Shown: positions 1-9,859, counted from the first letter of the stretch. The stretch: 64,000 bases of DNA from Candidatus Vogelbacteria bacterium (GCA_903878275.1 CAIRHC010000007.1:8727-72726); one strand, 5' to 3'. The notes: generated from the sequence alone by a model not told the origin. Translations and numbers: made by a program.

Positions 1-1388
1 TCTGGTAATTCGGCTAATTTGACTGCTTTTTCTTCTAAATATTTTTTAGTGTTTAGTTCTGGGTTCTCAAGAACCTCTTCCATTAAGGCATTTAGAATAA
101 AACCAACTTTTGGCCCTGGTGTCTCACGTGTAACATCCATTATTTTTTTGCCGTCGATTTTCATCATTTTTACTGAAGTCGGCGCCCTCAATGCCTCTTC
201 GATCATTGATTCGTATTTTCTCAAGCGATAAGGCTCTTCTTTTGGACGACCCATTCCGATGCGGTCACAGAAGCGTAAATTCATCAAATCCCAAATGTAT
301 TCTGGCCCGACGTTTACGATAATCCGACGAACGGCTGATAAGGTGATTTTGTCCGGATCAGAGAAGAACATATGGTTTCTGACCAGTTTTACAACAATCT
401 CGGTTAGTTTCACGGGAAACTTTAACCTAGACATTATCTCCTTTACCATTCTTTCCCCTACTACGTCGTGACCGTAAAAGGTGTATTGCTTACCTTTTAC
501 TGATTCGCGTCTGGTTTTCATCTTACCAACGTCGTGTAACAAAGCCGAAAGTCTCACGTGAAACGGGTATTCCTTATCAGCTGAATACTGCAAAGCTCTC
601 AAGGAATGTTCCCAAACGTCATAAATATGCTCCCCTTTCTGCTCGACACCAATCCCCGTTTCTATCTCTGGTAAAATATACTGCAATAGCCCACATTTGT
701 GGCATAAAATAAGACCTTCTTGTGGATTTGGCGACATAATTATCTTAGAAAATTCATCTCGTATTCTTTCTATCGAAGTATTTTTTAATAACTTGGAGTT
801 TTTAAAGATACTTTTCTTGGTGTCGATGTTGCACGTGAAACCAAGCTCGCTGGCGAAACGAATGGCTCTAATAAGCCGTAAACTATCTTCTGTGAAGCGA
901 AGATCGGCTTCCCCTACCGTTTGTACTACTTTGTCCTTTATGTCCTTTATACCGCCGTATAAATCGATTATCTCTTCAGTGAAAGGATTATAAGCTAAAG
1001 CATTGATCGTAAAATCTCGCCGAGCCAAATCTTCTTCCAAACTTTTGCCAAATTTTACCTCATCCGGGTGTCTGTTGTCTGAATAACCAGATTCTAATCT
1101 GAAGGGGGTAATTTCTACAGCTTTTAATTTGGAATCCTCTATCTCTTCGTTGATTACGGTGACAGTGCCAAATTGATTTTCATAAACAGTTTTAGAATAT
1201 AGCGACACGATTTGTTCCGGCGTGGCATTTGTCGTTATATCCCAATCTTTTGGTTCCCGGCCGATTAAGCCGTCTCGGACACAACCGCCCACTAAAAAAG
1301 CCTCAAAACCGTTATTTTTCAAGGTTTTGGCGTTGTCCAAGATAATTTCTGGAATTTTTAATTTAATTTTCGGGTTATTTTCAGGCAT
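1..1388 (-). CDS. cca: CCA-adding enzyme / poly(A) polymerase family with HD domain (runs off window start)
   Basis: Manual translation from ATG 1388: MPENNPKIKLKIPEIILDNAKTLKNNGFEAFLVGGCVRDGLIGREPKDWDITTNATP; later DLARRDFTINA, RFTEDSLRLIRAIRF, LHDVGK motifs. Absent from the ORF track because it has no stop in the window. Confidence 0.92.
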   Translation of the reverse strand, partial: MPENNPKIKLKIPEIILDNAKTLKNNGFEAFLVGGCVRDGLIGREPKDWDITTNATPEQIVSLYSKTVYENQFGTVTVINEEIEDSKLKAVEITPFRLESGYSDNRHPDEVKFGKSLEEDLARRDFTINALAYNPFTEEIIDLYGGIKDIKDKVVQTVGEADLRFTEDSLRLIRAIRFASELGFTCNIDTKKSIFKNSKLLKNTSIERIRDEFSKIIMSPNPQEGLILCHKCGLLQYILPEIETGIGVEQKGEHIYDVWEHSLRALQYSADKEYPFHVRLSALLHDVGKMKTRRESVKGKQYTFYGHDVVGERMVKEIMSRLKFPVKLTEIVVKLVRNHMFFSDPDKITLSAVRRIIVNVGPEYIWDLMNLRFCDRIGMGRPKEEPYRLRKYESMIEEALRAPTSVKMMKIDGKKIMDVTRETPGPKVGFILNALMEEVLENPELNTKKYLEEKAVKLAELP

Positions 1389-1448
1389 TATTTTAATTTT
1401 AACTAAAATTTTGATATTTATCCAATTTTATGGTACTTTTTATCTATT

Positions 1449-1520
1449 GCCCTTGTAGTTTAATGGATAAAACGACGGTCTTCGGAACCGTTGATGTGGG
1501 TTCGATTCCTGCCAGGGGCA
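1449..1520 (+). tRNA. tRNA-Arg(TCG)
   Basis: Acceptor GCCCTTG/CAGGGGC, anticodon arm ACGGT-CTTCGGA-ACCGT, T-loop GTTCGATTC; no encoded CCA. Confidence 0.92.
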
Positions 1521-1680
1521 CACGAGTGAAACGAAGTGGGTCATTGGCAGGAATCGAACAGGAGTGGGGTCGGGAGAACATTTTGTTCTCCAGTGGAGGA
1601 AGGCAGGGAGTTCGTCTTCTGACGAACGACCGTCGGAAAACCGTGGGTTTCCGAGGAGTGAGATTTCCTCCATGGGCACA
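1521..1680. repeat. tRNA 3' trailer element (inverted T-arm copy, core, direct copy of tRNA 3' end)
   Basis: GGCAGGAATCGAAC is the reverse complement of the tRNA T-arm; ends ATTTCCTCCATGGGCACA, similar to tRNA 3' end ATTCCTGCCAGGGGCACA. Confidence 0.8.
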
Positions 1681-1696
1681 CGGTAAAAAATAATTA

Positions 1697-1782
1697 GGGC
1701 ACGTGGCGGAATCTGGTATACGCGTACGTCTCAGAAGCGTATGGAGTGATCCTTGGGAGTTCGAGTCTCCCCGTGCCCACCA
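1697..1782 (+). tRNA. tRNA-Leu(CAG)
   Basis: GGGCACG/CGTGCCC acceptor, TACGT-CTCAGAA-GCGTA anticodon arm, long variable arm, encoded CCA. Confidence 0.93.
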
Positions 1783-1960
1783 AATAATACTAGCTAGTGT
1801 TATTTGGTGGGCACGAGAAAGGCAACTGCTTGCCTTTTGTGGGAGACTCGAACAACGGAACGATATTTTTTCAGTAGAAAAAATTAGTGAGTTGGTGCCT
1901 AGACCAAGGTGAGCGACGGCGAACCTTGAGTCGAAGGAGAGTCGCTCCCCCGTGCCCACA
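1783..1960. repeat. tRNA 3' trailer element
   Basis: TGGTGGGCACG and GGGAGACTCGAAC are inverted copies of acceptor+CCA and T-arm; ends CTCCCCGTGCCCAC, a direct copy. Confidence 0.8.
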
Positions 1961-2026
1961 CTTACCTATTTGAATTTTTGTAATAATTTGGTAAAATAGT
2001 TTTTGTTGGATTAGGTAAATAAATGA

Positions 2027-2097
2027 GCGGGTATGGTTTAGTGGTAGAACACGACCTTGCCAAGGTTGAGACGGGAGTCCGATTCTCCCTACCCGCA
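2027..2097 (+). tRNA. tRNA-Gly(GCC)
   Basis: GCGGGTA/TACCCGC acceptor, anticodon loop TTGCCAA; T-loop reads GTCCGAT. Confidence 0.9.
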
Positions 2098-2455
2098 CAA
2101 AAGACTTGTTTCATAGAATCAAGAAAAGAAAAAAGGACGGCGTTTGCCGTCCTTTTTTTGGGTCGTTTAGTCACTTTTAAACCTTAAAAAAACCAAAAAC
2201 TGTGGATAAACCTGTGTCCAATGGGGATAAGAGACGGCTTTTAACTTCTTTGGTTGTCCTTTGATTCGTCCGTTGCCTTTTAAAATATGGCTTAAAATAA
2301 CGTTATTCTGTAATTTTGACCAGAAATAAGGGTTTTTCACCCCGAAAGTGTTTCTTAAGAAACACTTTCGGGGCATTTTTCAGAAAAATGTCTAAAAATA
2401 GACAAAGAATGTCCGGTTTGTGCTAAAATTAAATTGTTTAAATATCTCAAAAATA

Positions 2456-2893
2456 ATGTTTGGTAATTCTTCAAAAACAGACAATCGAACCGAAAAACAA
2501 ATTGTCGGTGCGAAAGGGGAGCAACTCGCTTGCGATTACTTAATAAAAAATGGTTATCGAATACTAAAACGAAATTATTGGAAACCGCAGGGCGAGATCG
2601 ATATCGTGGCTCAAAAGGGGAGCATTCTTTATTTTATCGAAGTAAAAACCGTTTCTTCGACACCGGAATTTGTCAAAATGTTGTCTGAAAATAGGGGAAT
2701 GTTTGATAATTATCAGCCTGAAGACAACATTCACCCTTGGAAAATAAAAAGATTATCGAGAGTTATTGAAATTTTCCTGTCCGAAAACCACATTGATGAC
2801 GATCAGGACTGGCAAGTCGATGCCATTTGCGTGTACTTAGAAAAGGGGAGCGACAAAATGCTGAAAATCGAGTATCTGGAAGATATTATGTAA
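2456..2893 (+). CDS. yraN: YraN family (UPF0102) endonuclease-like protein
   Basis: GAKGEQLACDYL..NGYRILKRNY..GEIDIVA..FIEVKT; start codon uncertain. Confidence 0.88.
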   Translation: MFGNSSKTDNRTEKQIVGAKGEQLACDYLIKNGYRILKRNYWKPQGEIDIVAQKGSILYFIEVKTVSSTPEFVKMLSENRGMFDNYQPEDNIHPWKIKRLSRVIEIFLSENHIDDDQDWQVDAICVYLEKGSDKMLKIEYLEDIM

Positions 2894-2947
2894 AAAATTA
2901 AAGGGGCAGGATACTTTTTGTATCTGCCCCTAAACCTTAAACCATTT

Positions 2948-4078
2948 TTACTCTCCTTTCTGCCGGAAGTTCCAGCAACCTTCGGTGTCGACGAAACCGT
3001 CGCGACACAGTTGTTCATTTGATAACTCCTTGGCACGACGACCAAGGCATGAGTTGCACTTGCCTTCGGCGAAGTTGGCACACTTTGTGCCACACTTTCC
3101 ACCATAACACCGAGAACGGACAATCCGCATCTCGGTCGACTCCCAAGCTTGGTCGAGAGTCTTGGTTTTTACACTTCCTAATTTCACCTCCTCTGCCCCA
3201 ATGCAAGGGCGGACATCACCGTACTGTGATATGTACATATGGTGCATGTATCTATCGCAGACGGTACCGACATAGCTCTGGGATAACTCCCAGCTTTGAC
3301 CGAACTCATCTTTGTCGATTTGTTGGAGCTCAAGAAGCGCCACTTTGATTCCCTCGCCGGGGATTTTCAAGTGACAACTTTGAGCACGTCCCACATCAAG
3401 GACGGAGTCGCAGTCAAAGATAATATTATTCTTGCGACAGAAGCGCAAAACTTCTGCCACGTCATTGACGTTTGACGGACCATCAGGCTCGTCCGACGCC
3501 ATTATTGAAGTCACGAGTGCCAACCGGCTTTCGCGACCAAATTTTCTGGCAATCTCATCCTCTGGGGAATTGAAGCCAGCGTTAATCAGTGCTTGAAGGG
3601 TGGCGTTTCTTTTTGCGCCGTAACCTTCAATGTTGCGTCCGTGAGCTGGGTCGCTCACGAACTTGTCTTGCTCTTCCGGGTCGAGTGTGTTGCCCTTGAG
3701 CATTAGCTCGACCGGCAGTTTTTTTAACTTGGCGATAAGTTCCTCTGTCAGGAACTCGCCGGTTGTGAATACCGTGACAAACATTCCCAACTCGGTTGCC
3801 CGAGTCAAGAACCACATTGTGAGCTCGAGGTTCCGTTCAATGAACGGTTCCCCAGCCCCGGGGATACCAAGAGAATCGACACCGATACTCTCGGCTTCGG
3901 CCAGAAGGCGATTGTAGTCGTCTTTTGACAACAAATCGTCTGGCCTGTTTGGCTTTCCTCCTCTGGCGTAGCAGTATGTGCACGCCAAGTTGCAGAAGCC
4001 GGGCAACTCAACCCACAGACTCTGTAGTCTGCCGGTATTTGCACGGCGGAGGCCGTGCTGCACTGCCGTATTCTTCAT
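2948..4078 (-). CDS. Radical SAM protein with C-terminal SPASM-like Cys-rich domain
   Basis: CNLACTYC (CxxxCxxC), GAGEP, C-terminal C..YISQYGDVRPC..CGTKC..CNSC; AGGAG RBS before ATG 4078; GC-richer than flanks. Confidence 0.88.
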   Translation of the reverse strand: MKNTAVQHGLRRANTGRLQSLWVELPGFCNLACTYCYARGGKPNRPDDLLSKDDYNRLLAEAESIGVDSLGIPGAGEPFIERNLELTMWFLTRATELGMFVTVFTTGEFLTEELIAKLKKLPVELMLKGNTLDPEEQDKFVSDPAHGRNIEGYGAKRNATLQALINAGFNSPEDEIARKFGRESRLALVTSIMASDEPDGPSNVNDVAEVLRFCRKNNIIFDCDSVLDVGRAQSCHLKIPGEGIKVALLELQQIDKDEFGQSWELSQSYVGTVCDRYMHHMYISQYGDVRPCIGAEEVKLGSVKTKTLDQAWESTEMRIVRSRCYGGKCGTKCANFAEGKCNSCLGRRAKELSNEQLCRDGFVDTEGCWNFRQKGE

Positions 4079-4118
4079 TTTTTTACTCCTTTTAATTTTC
4101 AACGTTCTTCTGGCGCTA

Positions 4119-4160
4119 AGTATACCAGATTATTGTAAATATGTCAATATAATTTCGTCA
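4119..4160 (-). promoter_or_regulatory. Sigma70 promoter of radical SAM gene with overlapping putative operator
   Basis: Minus strand TTGACA-17-TATACT; TGACGA-N7-TTGACA overlaps the -35. Confidence 0.65.
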
Positions 4161-4249
4161 CTTTTACATAAAATTATCATATAATATATCTTTATTTTGC
4201 TTAATAAAAATGACTTGACTATGTAAAATAAGAGTATAAAATATAATAG

Positions 4250-4268
4250 TGACGACATATGTTCGTCA
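4250..4268. promoter_or_regulatory. Palindromic putative TrmB operator TGACGA-N7-TCGTCA
   Basis: Inverted hexamer just downstream of the trmB promoter TTGACT-16-TAAAAT. Confidence 0.55.
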
Positions 4269-4278
4269 AAATAAAACT

Positions 4279-5046
4279 ATGGATATTCAATTTATTATCG
4301 AAAAATTGGGACTAGGGGAGAAGCAAGCTGGGGTTTACATGGCTCTTCTTCAGATGGGATCAGGCAACATTAAACAAATTGCCAAAAATTCTGATCTCAA
4401 GCGGACGACTGTCTATAGTGTGTTAGATAATTTGATTCAAAAAGGATTTGTGATCTTGGTTAAAAAAGGTGCTCATCGTGTGTATTTTGCCGAAGATCCC
4501 AAAAAACTTTCTATTCTCTATGATAACGAAATATTAAAAATAAAAGAACGTCAGAAAGCCATAGCTGAAGTTTTACCAGAACTCGGTTCGCTTTATAATG
4601 CCAACGCGGCTAAACCCGCCATTCGTTTTTATGAAGGGTTGGAGGCTTTGAAGCAAGTTTTTAATGAAACTCTGGAGTTAAAGAAAGGGGAAGAAATTTT
4701 AGTCTATTCTTCAGCTGAATCAATCCATACTTATTTAGGTGATGTATATGTCAAGAATTATCTAGCCCAAAGAAAACAAAAGGGGATAATTCAAAGAGCT
4801 ATTGCTGAAGACTCTCTCTCTGCTCAAGAGCATCTTAAACACGACAAAGAAGAATTACGCCAGACTAGACTGGTAAGTAAGGAATTTTTTCCGTTTTCTA
4901 ATGAGATAAATATTTTTCGTAATAAAATGTTGATTATTTCTTATAAAGATTTCTTTGGGGTTGTTATCGAGAGTGCTGAAATTGCTAAAACCCAAAAAGC
5001 GATTTTTGAATTGGCATGGATTGGGTCTAAAAATATCAAAAAGTAA
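4279..5046 (+). CDS. TrmB family transcriptional regulator
   Basis: LGLGEKQAGVYMALL..RTTVYSVLDNLIQKG HTH; IRFYEGLE; EINIFRNK..IES. Confidence 0.88.
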   Translation: MDIQFIIEKLGLGEKQAGVYMALLQMGSGNIKQIAKNSDLKRTTVYSVLDNLIQKGFVILVKKGAHRVYFAEDPKKLSILYDNEILKIKERQKAIAEVLPELGSLYNANAAKPAIRFYEGLEALKQVFNETLELKKGEEILVYSSAESIHTYLGDVYVKNYLAQRKQKGIIQRAIAEDSLSAQEHLKHDKEELRQTRLVSKEFFPFSNEINIFRNKMLIISYKDFFGVVIESAEIAKTQKAIFELAWIGSKNIKK

Positions 5047-5177
5047 TTTAGCTAGAGTTTTTGAAATATTCCTCCATAAAATTGACTTTTGTCTAAAATA
5101 TTGTATGATTGTAAAAGATTGGTCGGCTGTCGATCAATGAAACGAAGTTCTTTGTTTAATCTAGTTGGAGAAAAAAG

Positions 5178-5453
5178 ATGACCGAGCATAAAGTGAATGA
5201 AGAAGTGGAGTTGCGCATTTTGCGCAAATTATTCAAGAGACATATTTCGCAAGGTCGATTGATGTCGGCCAACGAGTTTAATCGCCATGTCACTAATCTG
5301 GCGAAAGAGCTCGGCGAGAATACAGATGATCTCCGTCAGTTGGCGGAAAAATTTCTGACCGAGATTGTTGGGGATATGCTCACACAATCTCTGAAAAAGT
5401 CAGTAACATCACAAATTCCCGAAGTCGAGCATTTTGGGAGTTCAGTGAAATAA
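5178..5453 (+). CDS. Hypothetical protein
   Basis: Own promoter TTGACT-16-TATGAT at ~5082, GGAG RBS; hairpin at ~5559-5588. Confidence 0.65.
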   Translation: MTEHKVNEEVELRILRKLFKRHISQGRLMSANEFNRHVTNLAKELGENTDDLRQLAEKFLTEIVGDMLTQSLKKSVTSQIPEVEHFGSSVK

Positions 5454-5669
5454 AGACGGCAAGGTCGAGCCCGCCCCGGCTCTCAAAGGGTAATTGAACC
5501 TCCTCGCTTGGCGAGCAAGGTTCAGAATAAGAACCCTCCTCCTGTCTTTGTTTTTTTGTAAGGCTAGGCGATTTGTCGCTTAGCCTTTTAATTTGGCTGG
5601 TTTTTCTTAGGTTTTTTAATATTTGAATTTAGATTGTTTTTAGGCTATAATTTTAGAGTTATTAAATAT

Positions 5670-5741
5670 CGGGGTGTAGTGCAACGGCTAGCACGAGTCC
5701 TTTGGGAGGATTTAATCCGAGTTCGAATCTCGGCACCCCGA
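5670..5741 (+). tRNA. tRNA-Pro(TGG)
   Basis: CGGGGTG/CACCCCG acceptor, AGTCC-TTTGGGA-GGATT anticodon arm, GTTCGAAT. Confidence 0.92.
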
Positions 5742-5917
5742 CAAAAAACAAAAGAGCTGGAAATTTCCAGTTCTTTGTTTTTTGTCTCGAGATTCGAACC
5801 AGAGGTGGGGTCGGGAGGACTGGGTGTCCTCCCGTGGAGGAAATTATTCAAAACCGAGGGGTTTGAAAGCGCAATTCGCTTTAGCGAATGAGCAGTGAGT
5901 GTTCTCGGCACCCCGAC
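5742..5917. repeat. tRNA 3' trailer element
   Basis: Hairpin, CGAGATTCGAAC (inverted T-arm), core shared with 1521 and 6756 copies, direct copy TCTCGGCACCCCGAC. Confidence 0.85.
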
Positions 5918-5978
5918 AAAATTTTTATATTCTCAACTTGTGTATTGACAAAGTAATTACATTGTCTATACTAGAATT

Positions 5979-6227
5979 ATGTCTACTTTAAGTATTAGGA
6001 TTGAAGATAAAACCAAAGCTGAAGCAAGTAAAACTCTGGCTCGTCTTGGGCTTGATATGTCTAGCGCGATCAAACTTTTTCTTTATCAGGTAGTAAAGGA
6101 AGACGGTCTGCCTTTTACTCCGACCAATAATCTGGCGATAATTAAAGCTCGCTTCGATACTCAAGTGCTTGAAGCCAAGAAAAACCGTGGTTTCAAGACG
6201 GCAAAAGAGGCGCTTGATGATTTATAA
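5979..6227 (+). CDS. dinJ: RelB/DinJ family antitoxin
   Basis: LSIRIEDKTKAEA..LGLDMSSAIKLFL..GLPF; promoter TTGACA-16-TATACT with internal palindrome. Confidence 0.88.
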   Translation: MSTLSIRIEDKTKAEASKTLARLGLDMSSAIKLFLYQVVKEDGLPFTPTNNLAIIKARFDTQVLEAKKNRGFKTAKEALDDL

Positions 6228-6230
6228 AAT

Positions 6231-6515
6231 ATGTACATTATCAAGCGGACTAAAGATTTTGAAAGGTCTTTTAAAAAACTTAAGCAGGCGGGACTTTCAA
6301 AAAATAAAAGAAATATCTTAGAATCTGTAATTGATATAATAGCTTTGGGTCAAAAACCGAGCGAGAAATATAAAGACCATCAATTAAAAGGGGAATTGAG
6401 GTTTTTTCGTGAATGTCATATTTTTAATGATCTTTTGGTGATTTACAAAATCGAAAAAGACGAGTTGATCCTAGTTTTGGTTGACATTGGTAGTCATGCT
6501 CAATTATTTGGATAA
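6231..6515 (+). CDS. yafQ: YafQ family mRNA interferase toxin
   Basis: KYKDHQLKG..RECHIFNDLLVIY..LVDIGSHAQLF. Confidence 0.9.
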   Translation: MYIIKRTKDFERSFKKLKQAGLSKNKRNILESVIDIIALGQKPSEKYKDHQLKGELRFFRECHIFNDLLVIYKIEKDELILVLVDIGSHAQLFG

Positions 6516-6563
6516 AACAGACGCATTTTGAATTAAGGTATTTTAAGTGGTAGGATAAAATAT

Positions 6564-6755
6564 CGGAGTGTAGTGTAACGGTAACATCCACGACACGCCC
6601 GCCTACCTTTTTATCGGGGCATAGTGTAACGGTAACATTTACGATTCGGGTTCGTAAGACTCAGGGTTCGAATCCCTGTGCCCCGACAAGAGAAGTGAGA
6701 AAAGGTGGGCAGGTGAAGGTTCGTGGGACTCAGGGTTCGAATCCCGGCACTCCGA
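6564..6755 (+). other. tRNA-Pro-like gene whose anticodon loop is replaced by an insertion holding a second tRNA
   Basis: CGGAGTG/CACTCCG acceptor + A73, D arm TAGTGTAACGGTAACAT, anticodon stem CCACGA/TCGTGG separated by ~125 nt, T arm CAGGGTTCGAATCCCGG. Confidence 0.85.
6615..6686 (+). tRNA. tRNA-Pro(CGG), nested
   Basis: CGGGGCA/TGCCCCG acceptor, TACGA-TTCGGGT-TCGTA, CAGGG-TTCGAAT-CCCTG. Confidence 0.92.
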
Positions 6756-6903
6756 CAAAACTGAAAAGTTTTTCGGAGTGCAGGGATTCGAACGGGAAGG
6801 GGTAGGGAAACGGGAGTTTCCCTTGGCGGAGTTATTCAAACCGAGGGGTTTGAAAGCGCAATTCGCTTTAGCGAATGAGCAGTGAGATTCCCGGCACTCC
6901 GAC
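6756..6903. repeat. tRNA 3' trailer element
   Basis: TCGGAGTGCAGGGATTCGAAC inverted copy; core CCGAGGGGTTTGAAAGCGCAATTCGCTTTAGCGAATGAGCAGTGAG identical to the 5742 copy; direct copy ATTCCCGGCACTCCGAC. Confidence 0.85.
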
Positions 6904-6936
6904 ACAACGAAAAATTAATAATTTAATTAAACAGTT

Positions 6937-7449
6937 ATGATCGAACAAAATTCAAGTGTGGAAAAAATTGAAAATGTGAGGAAATTTCTAATTAGGTCGA
7001 ATGAGGCTGGTTATGCTGGTGGGGAAGATAAGAAATGGATTAAGGAGGCGGATAGCTCGACCACGATCGCTTATGAAGATGGTGATTGGAAATTTAATGA
7101 TAACTTCTTCGGTGGTGAGCCGTATGGTGGGCGGGAAGTGATTTTTAAAGAGGGAAAGCCGGAATGGATGATGGTTTATTACGGTTTGATTAGCGATAAG
7201 GACTTGGATAAAAACAAGGTTTATGGTTTTTTGCGCTCGGCTCTGAAATTGGCGCCAGCCGAAATGCCTTTGCGTGGCCCAGATCTTTTTGTGCAGGAAA
7301 TTGATGGTCAAAAGTGGGTTTATGAAAATAAGGTTGGTGGCAAGATGGAAAATTTTTCTGGTAAAGAAACTATTAGTATCGATGGCCGGGAGATTTTTTA
7401 TACGGATTATTTCGGTGGCTTGGTGGATGTGGATAGGGAGGCTATTTAA
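6937..7449 (+). CDS. DUF5680-like protein
   Basis: GYAGG..DNFFGGEPYGGREV..WMMVYYG..PLRGP..FSGKE. Confidence 0.75.
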   Translation: MIEQNSSVEKIENVRKFLIRSNEAGYAGGEDKKWIKEADSSTTIAYEDGDWKFNDNFFGGEPYGGREVIFKEGKPEWMMVYYGLISDKDLDKNKVYGFLRSALKLAPAEMPLRGPDLFVQEIDGQKWVYENKVGGKMENFSGKETISIDGREIFYTDYFGGLVDVDREAI

Positions 7450-7484: not shown

Positions 7485-7551
7485 TGTCATTCCCGCGTAG
7501 GCGGGAATCTAGGTTTTGTCGAGTTGGTCTAGATTCCCGGCGGGAATGACA
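7485..7551. repeat. GTCATTCCCGCG..GCGGGAAT palindromic repeat (dRS3/RPE-like)
   Basis: TGTCATTCCCGCGTAGGCGGGAATCTAG...CTAGATTCCCGGCGGGAATGACA; half copy at 63655. Confidence 0.75.
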
Positions 7552-9513: not shown

Positions 9514-9859
9514 AAATCATTTTAGCCAAGTAAAACAAGGGTTTCACACCGGCTAAGGCAAAAATTGGCAGCGGAAATCTGACGTTTCACAGACAAGAGA
9601 ATTGAAAAAGGTGGGTGCTTAATTACTAAAATAGTTTAAAATCAAAAATATCTAGCTGTTTAAATCTAGAAGTCCAAGGTTCGTCGGTGGCAAGATTTAA
9701 TATTTTACTCCTGTTTTGTTTCGGCTGGAAGTTTGGTTTGACTTTGATATTACTTTTTGTTTTAATGTTTGTGTGTAGTAAGTTTCCTAAATTATTTTGG
9801 GTCAAAAATAATTTAGGAAGGTCAGCTTACTCAATATTAGAATTGTTAATTTGTGTTAA

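Follow-up and report, generated by a model that had tools for sequence, protein, structure and literature searches.

The subject of this analysis is a family of short elements behind transfer RNA (tRNA) genes in a stretch of 64,000 nucleotides from Candidatus Vogelbacteria bacterium (GCA_903878275.1 CAIRHC010000007.1:8727-72726), called the window here, with positions counted from its first letter. ARAGORN and Rfam call five tRNA genes and no other RNA in positions 1-7000, and four units, named after their host genes (Arg, Leu, Pro-TGG and Pro-like), each repeat the end of their own tRNA once in inverted and once in direct orientation. They belong to a widely distributed family of ~150-base non-coding units in the ultra-small Patescibacteria that stand at the ends of tRNA, transfer-messenger RNA (tmRNA) and protein genes. 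A first-pass annotation of the same DNA had described a common layout behind the four tRNAs, and all four units were recovered at the places it gave.

All features in the following are on the plus strand. The gene for tRNA-Arg(tcg) (1449..1521; ARAGORN and Rfam) is followed by the Arg unit (1522..1680), which was delimited by matching of arm and copy and by core comparison, and which has a core of what is termed type A. After a spacer comes the inverted arm (1536-1559), made up of a degenerate complement of the acceptor (1536-1544) and a complement of the T-arm and T-loop (1545-1559); the core starts at 1566 and is followed through a second hairpin (1638-1650) and an altered T-loop (1656-1663) to a degenerate direct copy (1665-1679). 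Behind tRNA-Leu(cag) (1697..1782; ARAGORN and Rfam) the Leu unit (1783..1960), recognized by arm matching, opens with a spacer hairpin. Its arm consists of an acceptor complement (1805-1815), a side hairpin (1816-1838) and a T-arm complement (1841-1853), and is followed by the core (1854-1938) and the direct copy (1939-1959). The side hairpin, placed within the arm at the junction of acceptor and T-stem, is a conserved feature of this second core type, and the hairpin and the core motifs recur in the relatives L312, L314 and L320; the Leu core, set apart as divergent in the first-pass annotation, is thus a distinct type but not a unique one. The same annotation had regarded the Leu copy as tRNA-like when read on the minus strand. 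Neither ARAGORN nor Rfam calls a tRNA there, the strand signature of the family lies on the plus strand, and the resemblance arises because the two arms are complementary.

The Pro-TGG unit (5743..5918; type A) follows tRNA-Pro(tgg) (5670..5742; ARAGORN and Rfam) and contains a terminator-like hairpin (5744-5783), an inverted arm (5788-5799), a core from 5807 with its second hairpin at 5851-5863, and a direct copy (5903-5917). The host of the fourth unit is an outer Pro-like gene (6564..6757) whose anticodon loop is interrupted, with complementary arms at 6598-6607 and 6704-6713, and in which an intact tRNA-Pro(cgg) is nested (6615..6687; ARAGORN and Rfam). Sequence comparison makes it likely that the outer gene is the ortholog of a relative's tRNA-Pro(cgg), with the second, intact Pro(cgg) gene carried on the insert that splits its anticodon loop. 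The Pro-like unit (6758..6904; type A) has its inverted arm at 6773-6793, a core from 6799 in which the first pair of hairpin 1 is a compensatory A-T, a second hairpin at 6838-6850 and a direct copy at 6888-6903. Between the two Pro loci, a RelB/YafQ toxin-antitoxin pair lies after the Pro-TGG unit (5979-6515). No tRNA-Pro(ggg) was called in this genome; the relative G324 has one at the Pro-like locus, and the start of a similar antitoxin follows its Pro(ggg) unit.

The four units were set against 100 random 300-nt windows of the same genome, and their arms were scored against 49 tRNA ends. For the inverted arms, none of the random windows reached the score of any unit (0/100 in all four cases); for the direct copies, which are ~12-18 nt long in the window, the figures were 0/100 (Leu, Pro-TGG and Pro-like) and 1/100 (the degenerate Arg copy). 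The end of the unit's own tRNA gave the best score among the 49 for 8/8 arms, which bears out the statement that the flanks match the local tRNA. The described kinship of the cores also holds, with 79% identity across 43 nt between Arg and Pro-TGG and an identical block of 49 nt (5851-5899 and 6838-6886) that forms the 3' half of both Pro cores. Contigs from public DNA runs cover the Pro-TGG unit (5686-5943) without differences, as well as the nested Pro junctions (6445-6724), while the Arg and Leu units are spanned by none of the contig pieces listed.

Within this genome the full layout is present at 4 of the 49 tRNA ends tested. At two further genes, tRNA-Phe (G000:C9:68800-68873) and tRNA-Lys(ctt) (C2:85244-85317), a hairpin and an inverted copy of the gene's own end are present with neither core nor direct copy, and these may be truncated units. 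Downstream of tRNA-Ser(gct) (G000:C7:118484-118573, minus strand) two units stand in tandem, possibly of a third core type: the inverted arm is degenerate, the core is different and very short, and there is a direct copy. Other unusual tRNA-like genes and repeats were encountered as well: two tRNA-Thr-like genes with an intron-like insert (G000:C7:147243-147508 and C9 ~9600-9800), one of them called with an intron by ARAGORN and each adjoining a tyrosine recombinase gene; a second gene copy resembling tRNA-Ala(ggc), whose D-loop contains a palindrome (G000:C6:27687-27762); a perfect 34-bp palindrome upstream of yraN (window 2340-2373); and an inverted pair resembling repetitive extragenic palindromic (REP) sequences after a DUF5680 gene (window 7487-7545).

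The distribution of the core was followed with sequence patterns. A first pattern, built from the three type-A cores and accompanied by a reversed pattern as control, gave 40 matches in 21 of 401 genomes of the phylum and 1 control match; a core-only pattern detected the core in 48 of 301 class-level genomes with 0 control matches, and in genus g373 the core occurs in 11/11 genomes at 3-16 copies each, against 0/2 in the sister genera g404/g547. The named true matches are Patescibacteria-type records or unclassified 'bacterium' records, which would place the window in the same phylum, and a loose pattern run over the whole collection returned at least 122 matches that are mostly chance in GC-rich genomes. 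In IMG/VR these patterns gave 3 + 2 matches on viral contigs; the four inspected are chance, so the core was not detected there by this means. The metagenome set comprises 118 non-redundant cores among the matches listed. A tRNA or tmRNA lies at most 140 nt upstream of 66 of these, representing 35 kinds; the others have no called tRNA (44), have one farther away (1) or are too short (7). With the thresholds set here, the 66 linked cores have an arm in 54 cases, a direct copy in 44 and both in 38.

Cores without an adjacent tRNA were also considered as parts of a cassette system, and this was rejected: in L157 and L160 the matching tRNA was found 6.5 and 15.6 kb upstream, and these orphan cores are trailers that DNA inserted at the extreme end of the tRNA has pushed away. 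In L157-L160, stretches of 6-16 kb inserted at the terminal bases of tRNA-Gln or (likely) tRNA-Asn separate the trailer unit from the tRNA, several of them with serine-recombinase-like genes. The recombinase-like genes near some orphan cores, whose labels were read from translations, appear to be part of such separate islands. Nesting of elements was seen elsewhere: the second core type is inserted within hairpins of a type-A core in L164, L167 and L260, and small palindromes are inserted in cores in L008 and L027. Near-identical pairs of units flank 2.5-7 kb of cargo, in the manner of a composite element, in L164 (2289-9500), L163 (1800-5720) and L156 (9900-12586), the cargo including restriction-modification and AbiEii genes, a LexA-methylase fusion and oxidoreductases.

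Many of the cores that are not behind tRNA genes repeat the layout, at the last codons of rpsI, rpmG, nusG, rplK and a PHP/PolX gene, and in antisense orientation at the first codons of fusA, typA, lepA, rplK, dnaX and glycosyltransferase genes (names assigned by reading of translations). The two gene-end copies were compared codon by codon in 25 units, 15 at 5' ends in antisense and 10 at 3' ends, taken from 24 of 26 loci (two were skipped). There are 187 identical codons, 116 silent differences and 61 amino-acid differences, and third positions hold 156 of the 250 base differences (p=6e-21). Because the differences are mostly silent, both copies have at some time functioned as gene ends and represent two working alleles. 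At both typA and lepA the junction is marked by a His to Gln change.

Comparison of filled with empty alleles points to which of the two ends came with the unit. At rpsI in genus g17, the filled genomes G684 and G350 have a common proximal allele and a common distal allele, and the empty G701 carries the codons of the distal copy followed by a similar terminator; among other empty alleles, G270 has mixed codons and G608 other codons, and in G525 three rpsI ends are stacked. At rplK, the empty allele of G270 equals the distal side of the filled G701. In genus g373, empty alleles of tRNA genes for Asp, Ser and Leu run on into the sequence that is found after the direct copy, and truncated older units are often distal. 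More generally, orthologous tRNA genes have a unit in some genomes and lack it in others, the junctions being clean; within the family and order of the window's organism, 4 of 21 Arg(tcg) loci and 4 of 13 Leu(cag) loci are filled as judged by eye, with differing core types. Because the empty alleles match the distal side, the distal copy is, on these comparisons, the displaced resident end, as at the dusA islands discussed below. The first-pass annotation had proposed a non-autonomous element that copies the tRNA end upon insertion. Presence and absence at orthologs and the clean junctions agree with the element, while the copying does not fit the majority of protein genes, where the copies are diverged working alleles.

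The geometry of the arm was derived from 67 automatic three-way alignments of gene, arm and direct copy. The arm ends ~6 nt ahead of the core. Over its positions 1-7 it differs from the gene at 10 of 308 bases in tRNA units and 3 of 161 in the others, and from the direct copy at 165 of 308 and 69 of 161; over positions 8-15 the mismatches with the direct copy number 58 of 263 and 19 of 134, respectively. The arm thus tracks the gene beside it. The core folds into two hairpins with support from covariation, hairpin 1 showing two-sided changes at 4 of 8 pairs in an alignment of 67 sequences and hairpin 2 covarying among 273 cores. The loops in these 273 cores are of GNRA type in 113 cases and of GNYA type in 30. 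Strand preference is pronounced: the top strand has 208 loops of GNRA type and the bottom strand 21, the motif GCGAAGC counts 46 vs 2, and mismatches of the G.T kind 19 vs 7 for A.C, marking one folding strand. In folds of 7/7 segments the plus strand is more stable than the minus strand. The antisense units at 5' ends have, by eye, the same loops on the folding strand, which favours single-stranded DNA over RNA as the folded form.

The nearest known counterparts are the tRNA-linked repeats (TLRs) of E. coli, which like the units of the Candidate Phyla Radiation (CPR) described here are short repeats behind tRNA genes that end in a gene-end copy (rttR/RtT, RF00391; rrA/rrB/rrF). There are 22 of them, defined by an 18-19 bp copy of the end of the upstream gene, and they have been described since 1978 with no known function (PMC8144298). 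The word 'inverted' is absent from that source. At tyrT/tyrV and lysT/W/Y/Z/Q, an inverted arm comes first, then a hairpin-rich core, then a direct copy whose start lies late in the T-loop; several lys units have the same short motif ahead of the copy, and the rrfB case is unclear. Raised mobilome coverage in the tyrT/rttR region has been ascribed to RNA/DNA hybrids and does not count as support (10.1101/2024.07.17.603846). The covariance model RF00391 matched 9 places in E. coli (the positive control), none in the window and 0 of 9 CPR loci; the core sequence of the TLRs is unlike the CPR core, and the CPR units stand also at protein-gene ends. By these comparisons the CPR units have the build of TLRs without being RtT members. 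The earlier remark that the layout is undescribed therefore has to be narrowed, since the E. coli repeats share the order of arm, core and copy, and it stands with regard to the CPR cores, which the Rfam RtT model does not match; a wider check against Rfam returned no family at gathering score and none credible at E<=10. Searches of the openly accessible literature yielded no account of the CPR family, nor of units this small replacing gene ends. The CPR units combine the layout of TLRs with a probable end replacement like that of islands.

Taken together, these findings make it moderately probable that the units are non-autonomous integrative mini-elements that insert with a working gene end of their own and displace the resident end, likely by way of folded single-stranded DNA. 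Such a unit would consist of a replacement gene end from about base 8, a spacer (often a terminator-like hairpin), the inverted arm, the two-hairpin core and ~7 mismatched bases. It would move as a folded single strand in which the inverted arm recognizes the target; in the free form the arm would pair imperfectly with the unit's own junction, so that a fully complementary empty target would be favoured. A single strand exchange near base 7/8, ~7 bases from the end of the arm, would then be resolved by replication, as with attC or CTX phage DNA. The tailoring of units to their hosts would reflect lineages specialized on one gene end and repeatedly retargeted, new units being added beside the gene while older ones decay. 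Integron attC sites and the attP of CTX are folded, strand-specific substrates with unpaired bases in which one strand exchange is resolved by replication, and CTX uses the host XerCD (PMC4792948). The CPR core shares the strand-specific fold with unpaired bases; it differs in lacking a conserved AAC/GTT crossover triplet, the start bases following the target at protein genes, in having gene ends rather than attI or dif as targets, and in that no partner gene was found beside the cores. A more far-reaching version is put forward tentatively and seems on balance doubtful: the units may form a programmable guide system in which a single-stranded scaffold of ~100 nt with an arm of 10-20 nt sends a host or other enzyme to any sequence complementary to the arm and seamlessly exchanges the gene end; E. 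coli TLRs and comparable units of archaea would then belong to the same class.

Several points weigh against the mini-element interpretation. Deletion between the repeats could give the same empty alleles, and gain versus loss is not proven for each locus; units at dnaX are present in 4 of 5 congeners, a persistence that suggests long vertical residence. Four low-depth contig sets from one study showed neither a circle nor a joint that skips a unit, which is not evidence either way. The match of arm and gene is partly built in, since the limits of the arm were set through its match to the gene; some 10 of the 67 alignments are mis-registered, and hairpin insertions were counted as mismatches. 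The loci of the codon test were hand-picked and L242 was read in the wrong frame; some pairs are nearly identical, as expected of a recent copy (at nusG, 18 identical codons and 2 silent differences). Loop type does not separate DNA from RNA. Most type-A cores of genus g373 (L371-L427) are not at gene ends: they occupy the central loop of a REP-type palindrome, and a genome may have as many as 16 of them; Y1 and reverse transcriptase (RT) genes are few in the genus, and IS110 is absent. Finally, no recurrent mobilizing gene stands beside 93 cores (one DDE transposase and one GIY-YIG gene were seen), and no enzyme family searched for accompanies the core.

Three families were tried as partner enzyme (IS110, RT and Y1) and none tracks the core by co-occurrence. 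The bridge- and seek-RNAs of IS110/IS1111 have a conserved scaffold with variable sense and antisense segments that match the target, as do the CPR units; we know of no long gene-end duplication in these elements, and the DEDD transposase (PF02371) is found neither in this genome (0/1) nor in the core-positive genomes (0/47). An RT is missing here and present in just 20 of the 47 core-positive genomes, and in 2 of 11 in the genus with the highest copy number. In the single-strand systems with HUH Y1 enzymes, which are IS200/IS605 and REP sequences with their associated tyrosine transposases (RAYT), the target is selected through base pairing by a short guide that adjoins a hairpin, and unlike the CPR units these systems carry no gene end. 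Subterminal hairpins and single-strand intermediates are described for them (PMC6006769). The Y1 transposase occurs in 21 of 44 core-positive vs 28 of 36 core-negative genomes, the latter defined by absence of the type-A pattern only, so that they may hold other core types, and the related genomes not being independent. The 0.77-Mb genome studied here has five RAYT-like Y1 genes (G000:C10:82111, C7:65615, C7:131495, C3:19514 and C9:14829), each between its own distinct pair of palindromes, other than the units. It also has three tyrosine recombinases, and a tyrosine recombinase acting in trans is the leading guess for the enzyme.

A tyrosine recombinase also figures in a rival account that we regard as unlikely, in which the units are attachment-site (att) scars, leftover attL/attR of tyrosine-integrase islands with the interior deleted. 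The 7-base offset equals the typical overlap of a tyrosine recombinase, and attP is close to a unit in length. Islands are known for integration in the T-loop, an established sublocation of integrases (10.1101/2020.11.02.365908), and for the replacement of gene ends, as at the 5' end of dusA, where the element supplies the new end and the original one lies at the outer boundary (PMC4482086). The CPR units resemble them in inserting near a gene end, supplying a replacement and placing the resident end outward, as at rpsI and rplK with their silent-site bias. They differ in being ~150-250 bp long with no integrase or cargo, in the extra inverted arm and in a structure that is single-stranded; one core serves dozens of targets (35 kinds of tRNA/tmRNA and over ten protein genes), and the two ends share no identical ~7-bp overlap, the 7 bases on the crossover side differing between copies. 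No integrase was found in the nearest downstream frame of 93 cores, nor an integrase-bearing version beside them, and the inspected viral-contig matches were chance. To our knowledge, att sites have no inverted arm placed at a constant distance.

In an RNA switch, as the first-pass annotation had suggested, or a tRNA-mimic trailer, the arm in read-through RNA would pair either with the T-arm or with the copy downstream and so adjust how the tRNA folds or is processed; alternatively a small RNA like RtT would be released. The better fold of the plus strand in all seven segments, the ability of the arm to capture the T-arm in RNA folds, the GNRA loops on the transcribed strand at tRNA loci and the side hairpin conserved at the acceptor/T-stem junction in the second core type would all suit it, and E. 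coli repeats with this layout are transcribed and processed (PMC8144298). It fails as a general account, since core and layout occur also at protein-gene ends, including antisense 5' ends: 44 of the 118 listed sites have no called tRNA, and at 15 protein 5' ends the folding strand is antisense to the mRNA. RNA pairing also leaves the silent-site divergence of the downstream copy unexplained, and 4 of 49 ends here carry a unit while the orthologs are mostly empty. The idea is accordingly improbable as an explanation of the family, and a switch may exist as a side effect of the units. As for catalytic RNA, the HDV-like fold of tRNA-associated hepatitis delta virus (HDV)-like (theta) ribozymes starts at the tRNA 3' end, and the core of the units begins 40-70 nt past the tRNA; no ribozyme family was among the Rfam matches to E<=10, no dedicated theta model having been run.

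Equally little credence is given to copying upon insertion, by which a nick and fold-back at the terminator hairpin would make the arm and a polymerase or RT would move over to the core and then return; the direct copy would be a long target-site duplication. That the arm stops at a fixed ~6 nt before the core and tracks local variants exactly would follow readily, as would retargeting, and some duplications continue through the spacer (L039, L295 and L406), which decayed tandem units fit too. A fresh duplicate should decay with no codon bias, whereas the differences observed are mostly silent, and the same proximal rpsI allele accompanies the core in three genomes. The RT is wanting here and in 27 of 47 core-positive genomes, and likeness to target-primed reverse transcription or diversity-generating retroelements is further reduced by repeat differences at third codon positions, adenine bias having been viewed by eye at one locus. 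Such copying may be the origin of new target specificities. Least probable of all is that there is no dedicated mobility and the unit is a REP-like hairpin repeat useful to the host as terminator or 3' stabilizer, spread by transformation and homologous recombination and lost by repeat slippage: the failure to find a partner enzyme, the cores nested in REP-type palindromes with other palindromes inside cores, and the persistence across congeners are in its favour, but the fixed 7-base mismatch zone, the junction change shared by typA and lepA, and purifying selection on a downstream copy that is never expressed are left unexplained.

If the mini-element interpretation is true, the tRNA-linked repeats of E. 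coli gain a mechanism that can be tested, and the displaced copies can mislead programs that call att sites and islands. Streamlined genomes would then hold mobile units of ~150 bp that swap the ends of essential genes (rpsI, rpmG, rplK, fusA, lepA, dnaX and tRNA genes) between alleles without breaking them, and, if the arm is a true guide, the enzyme that moves them would be an integrase programmable by base-pairing.

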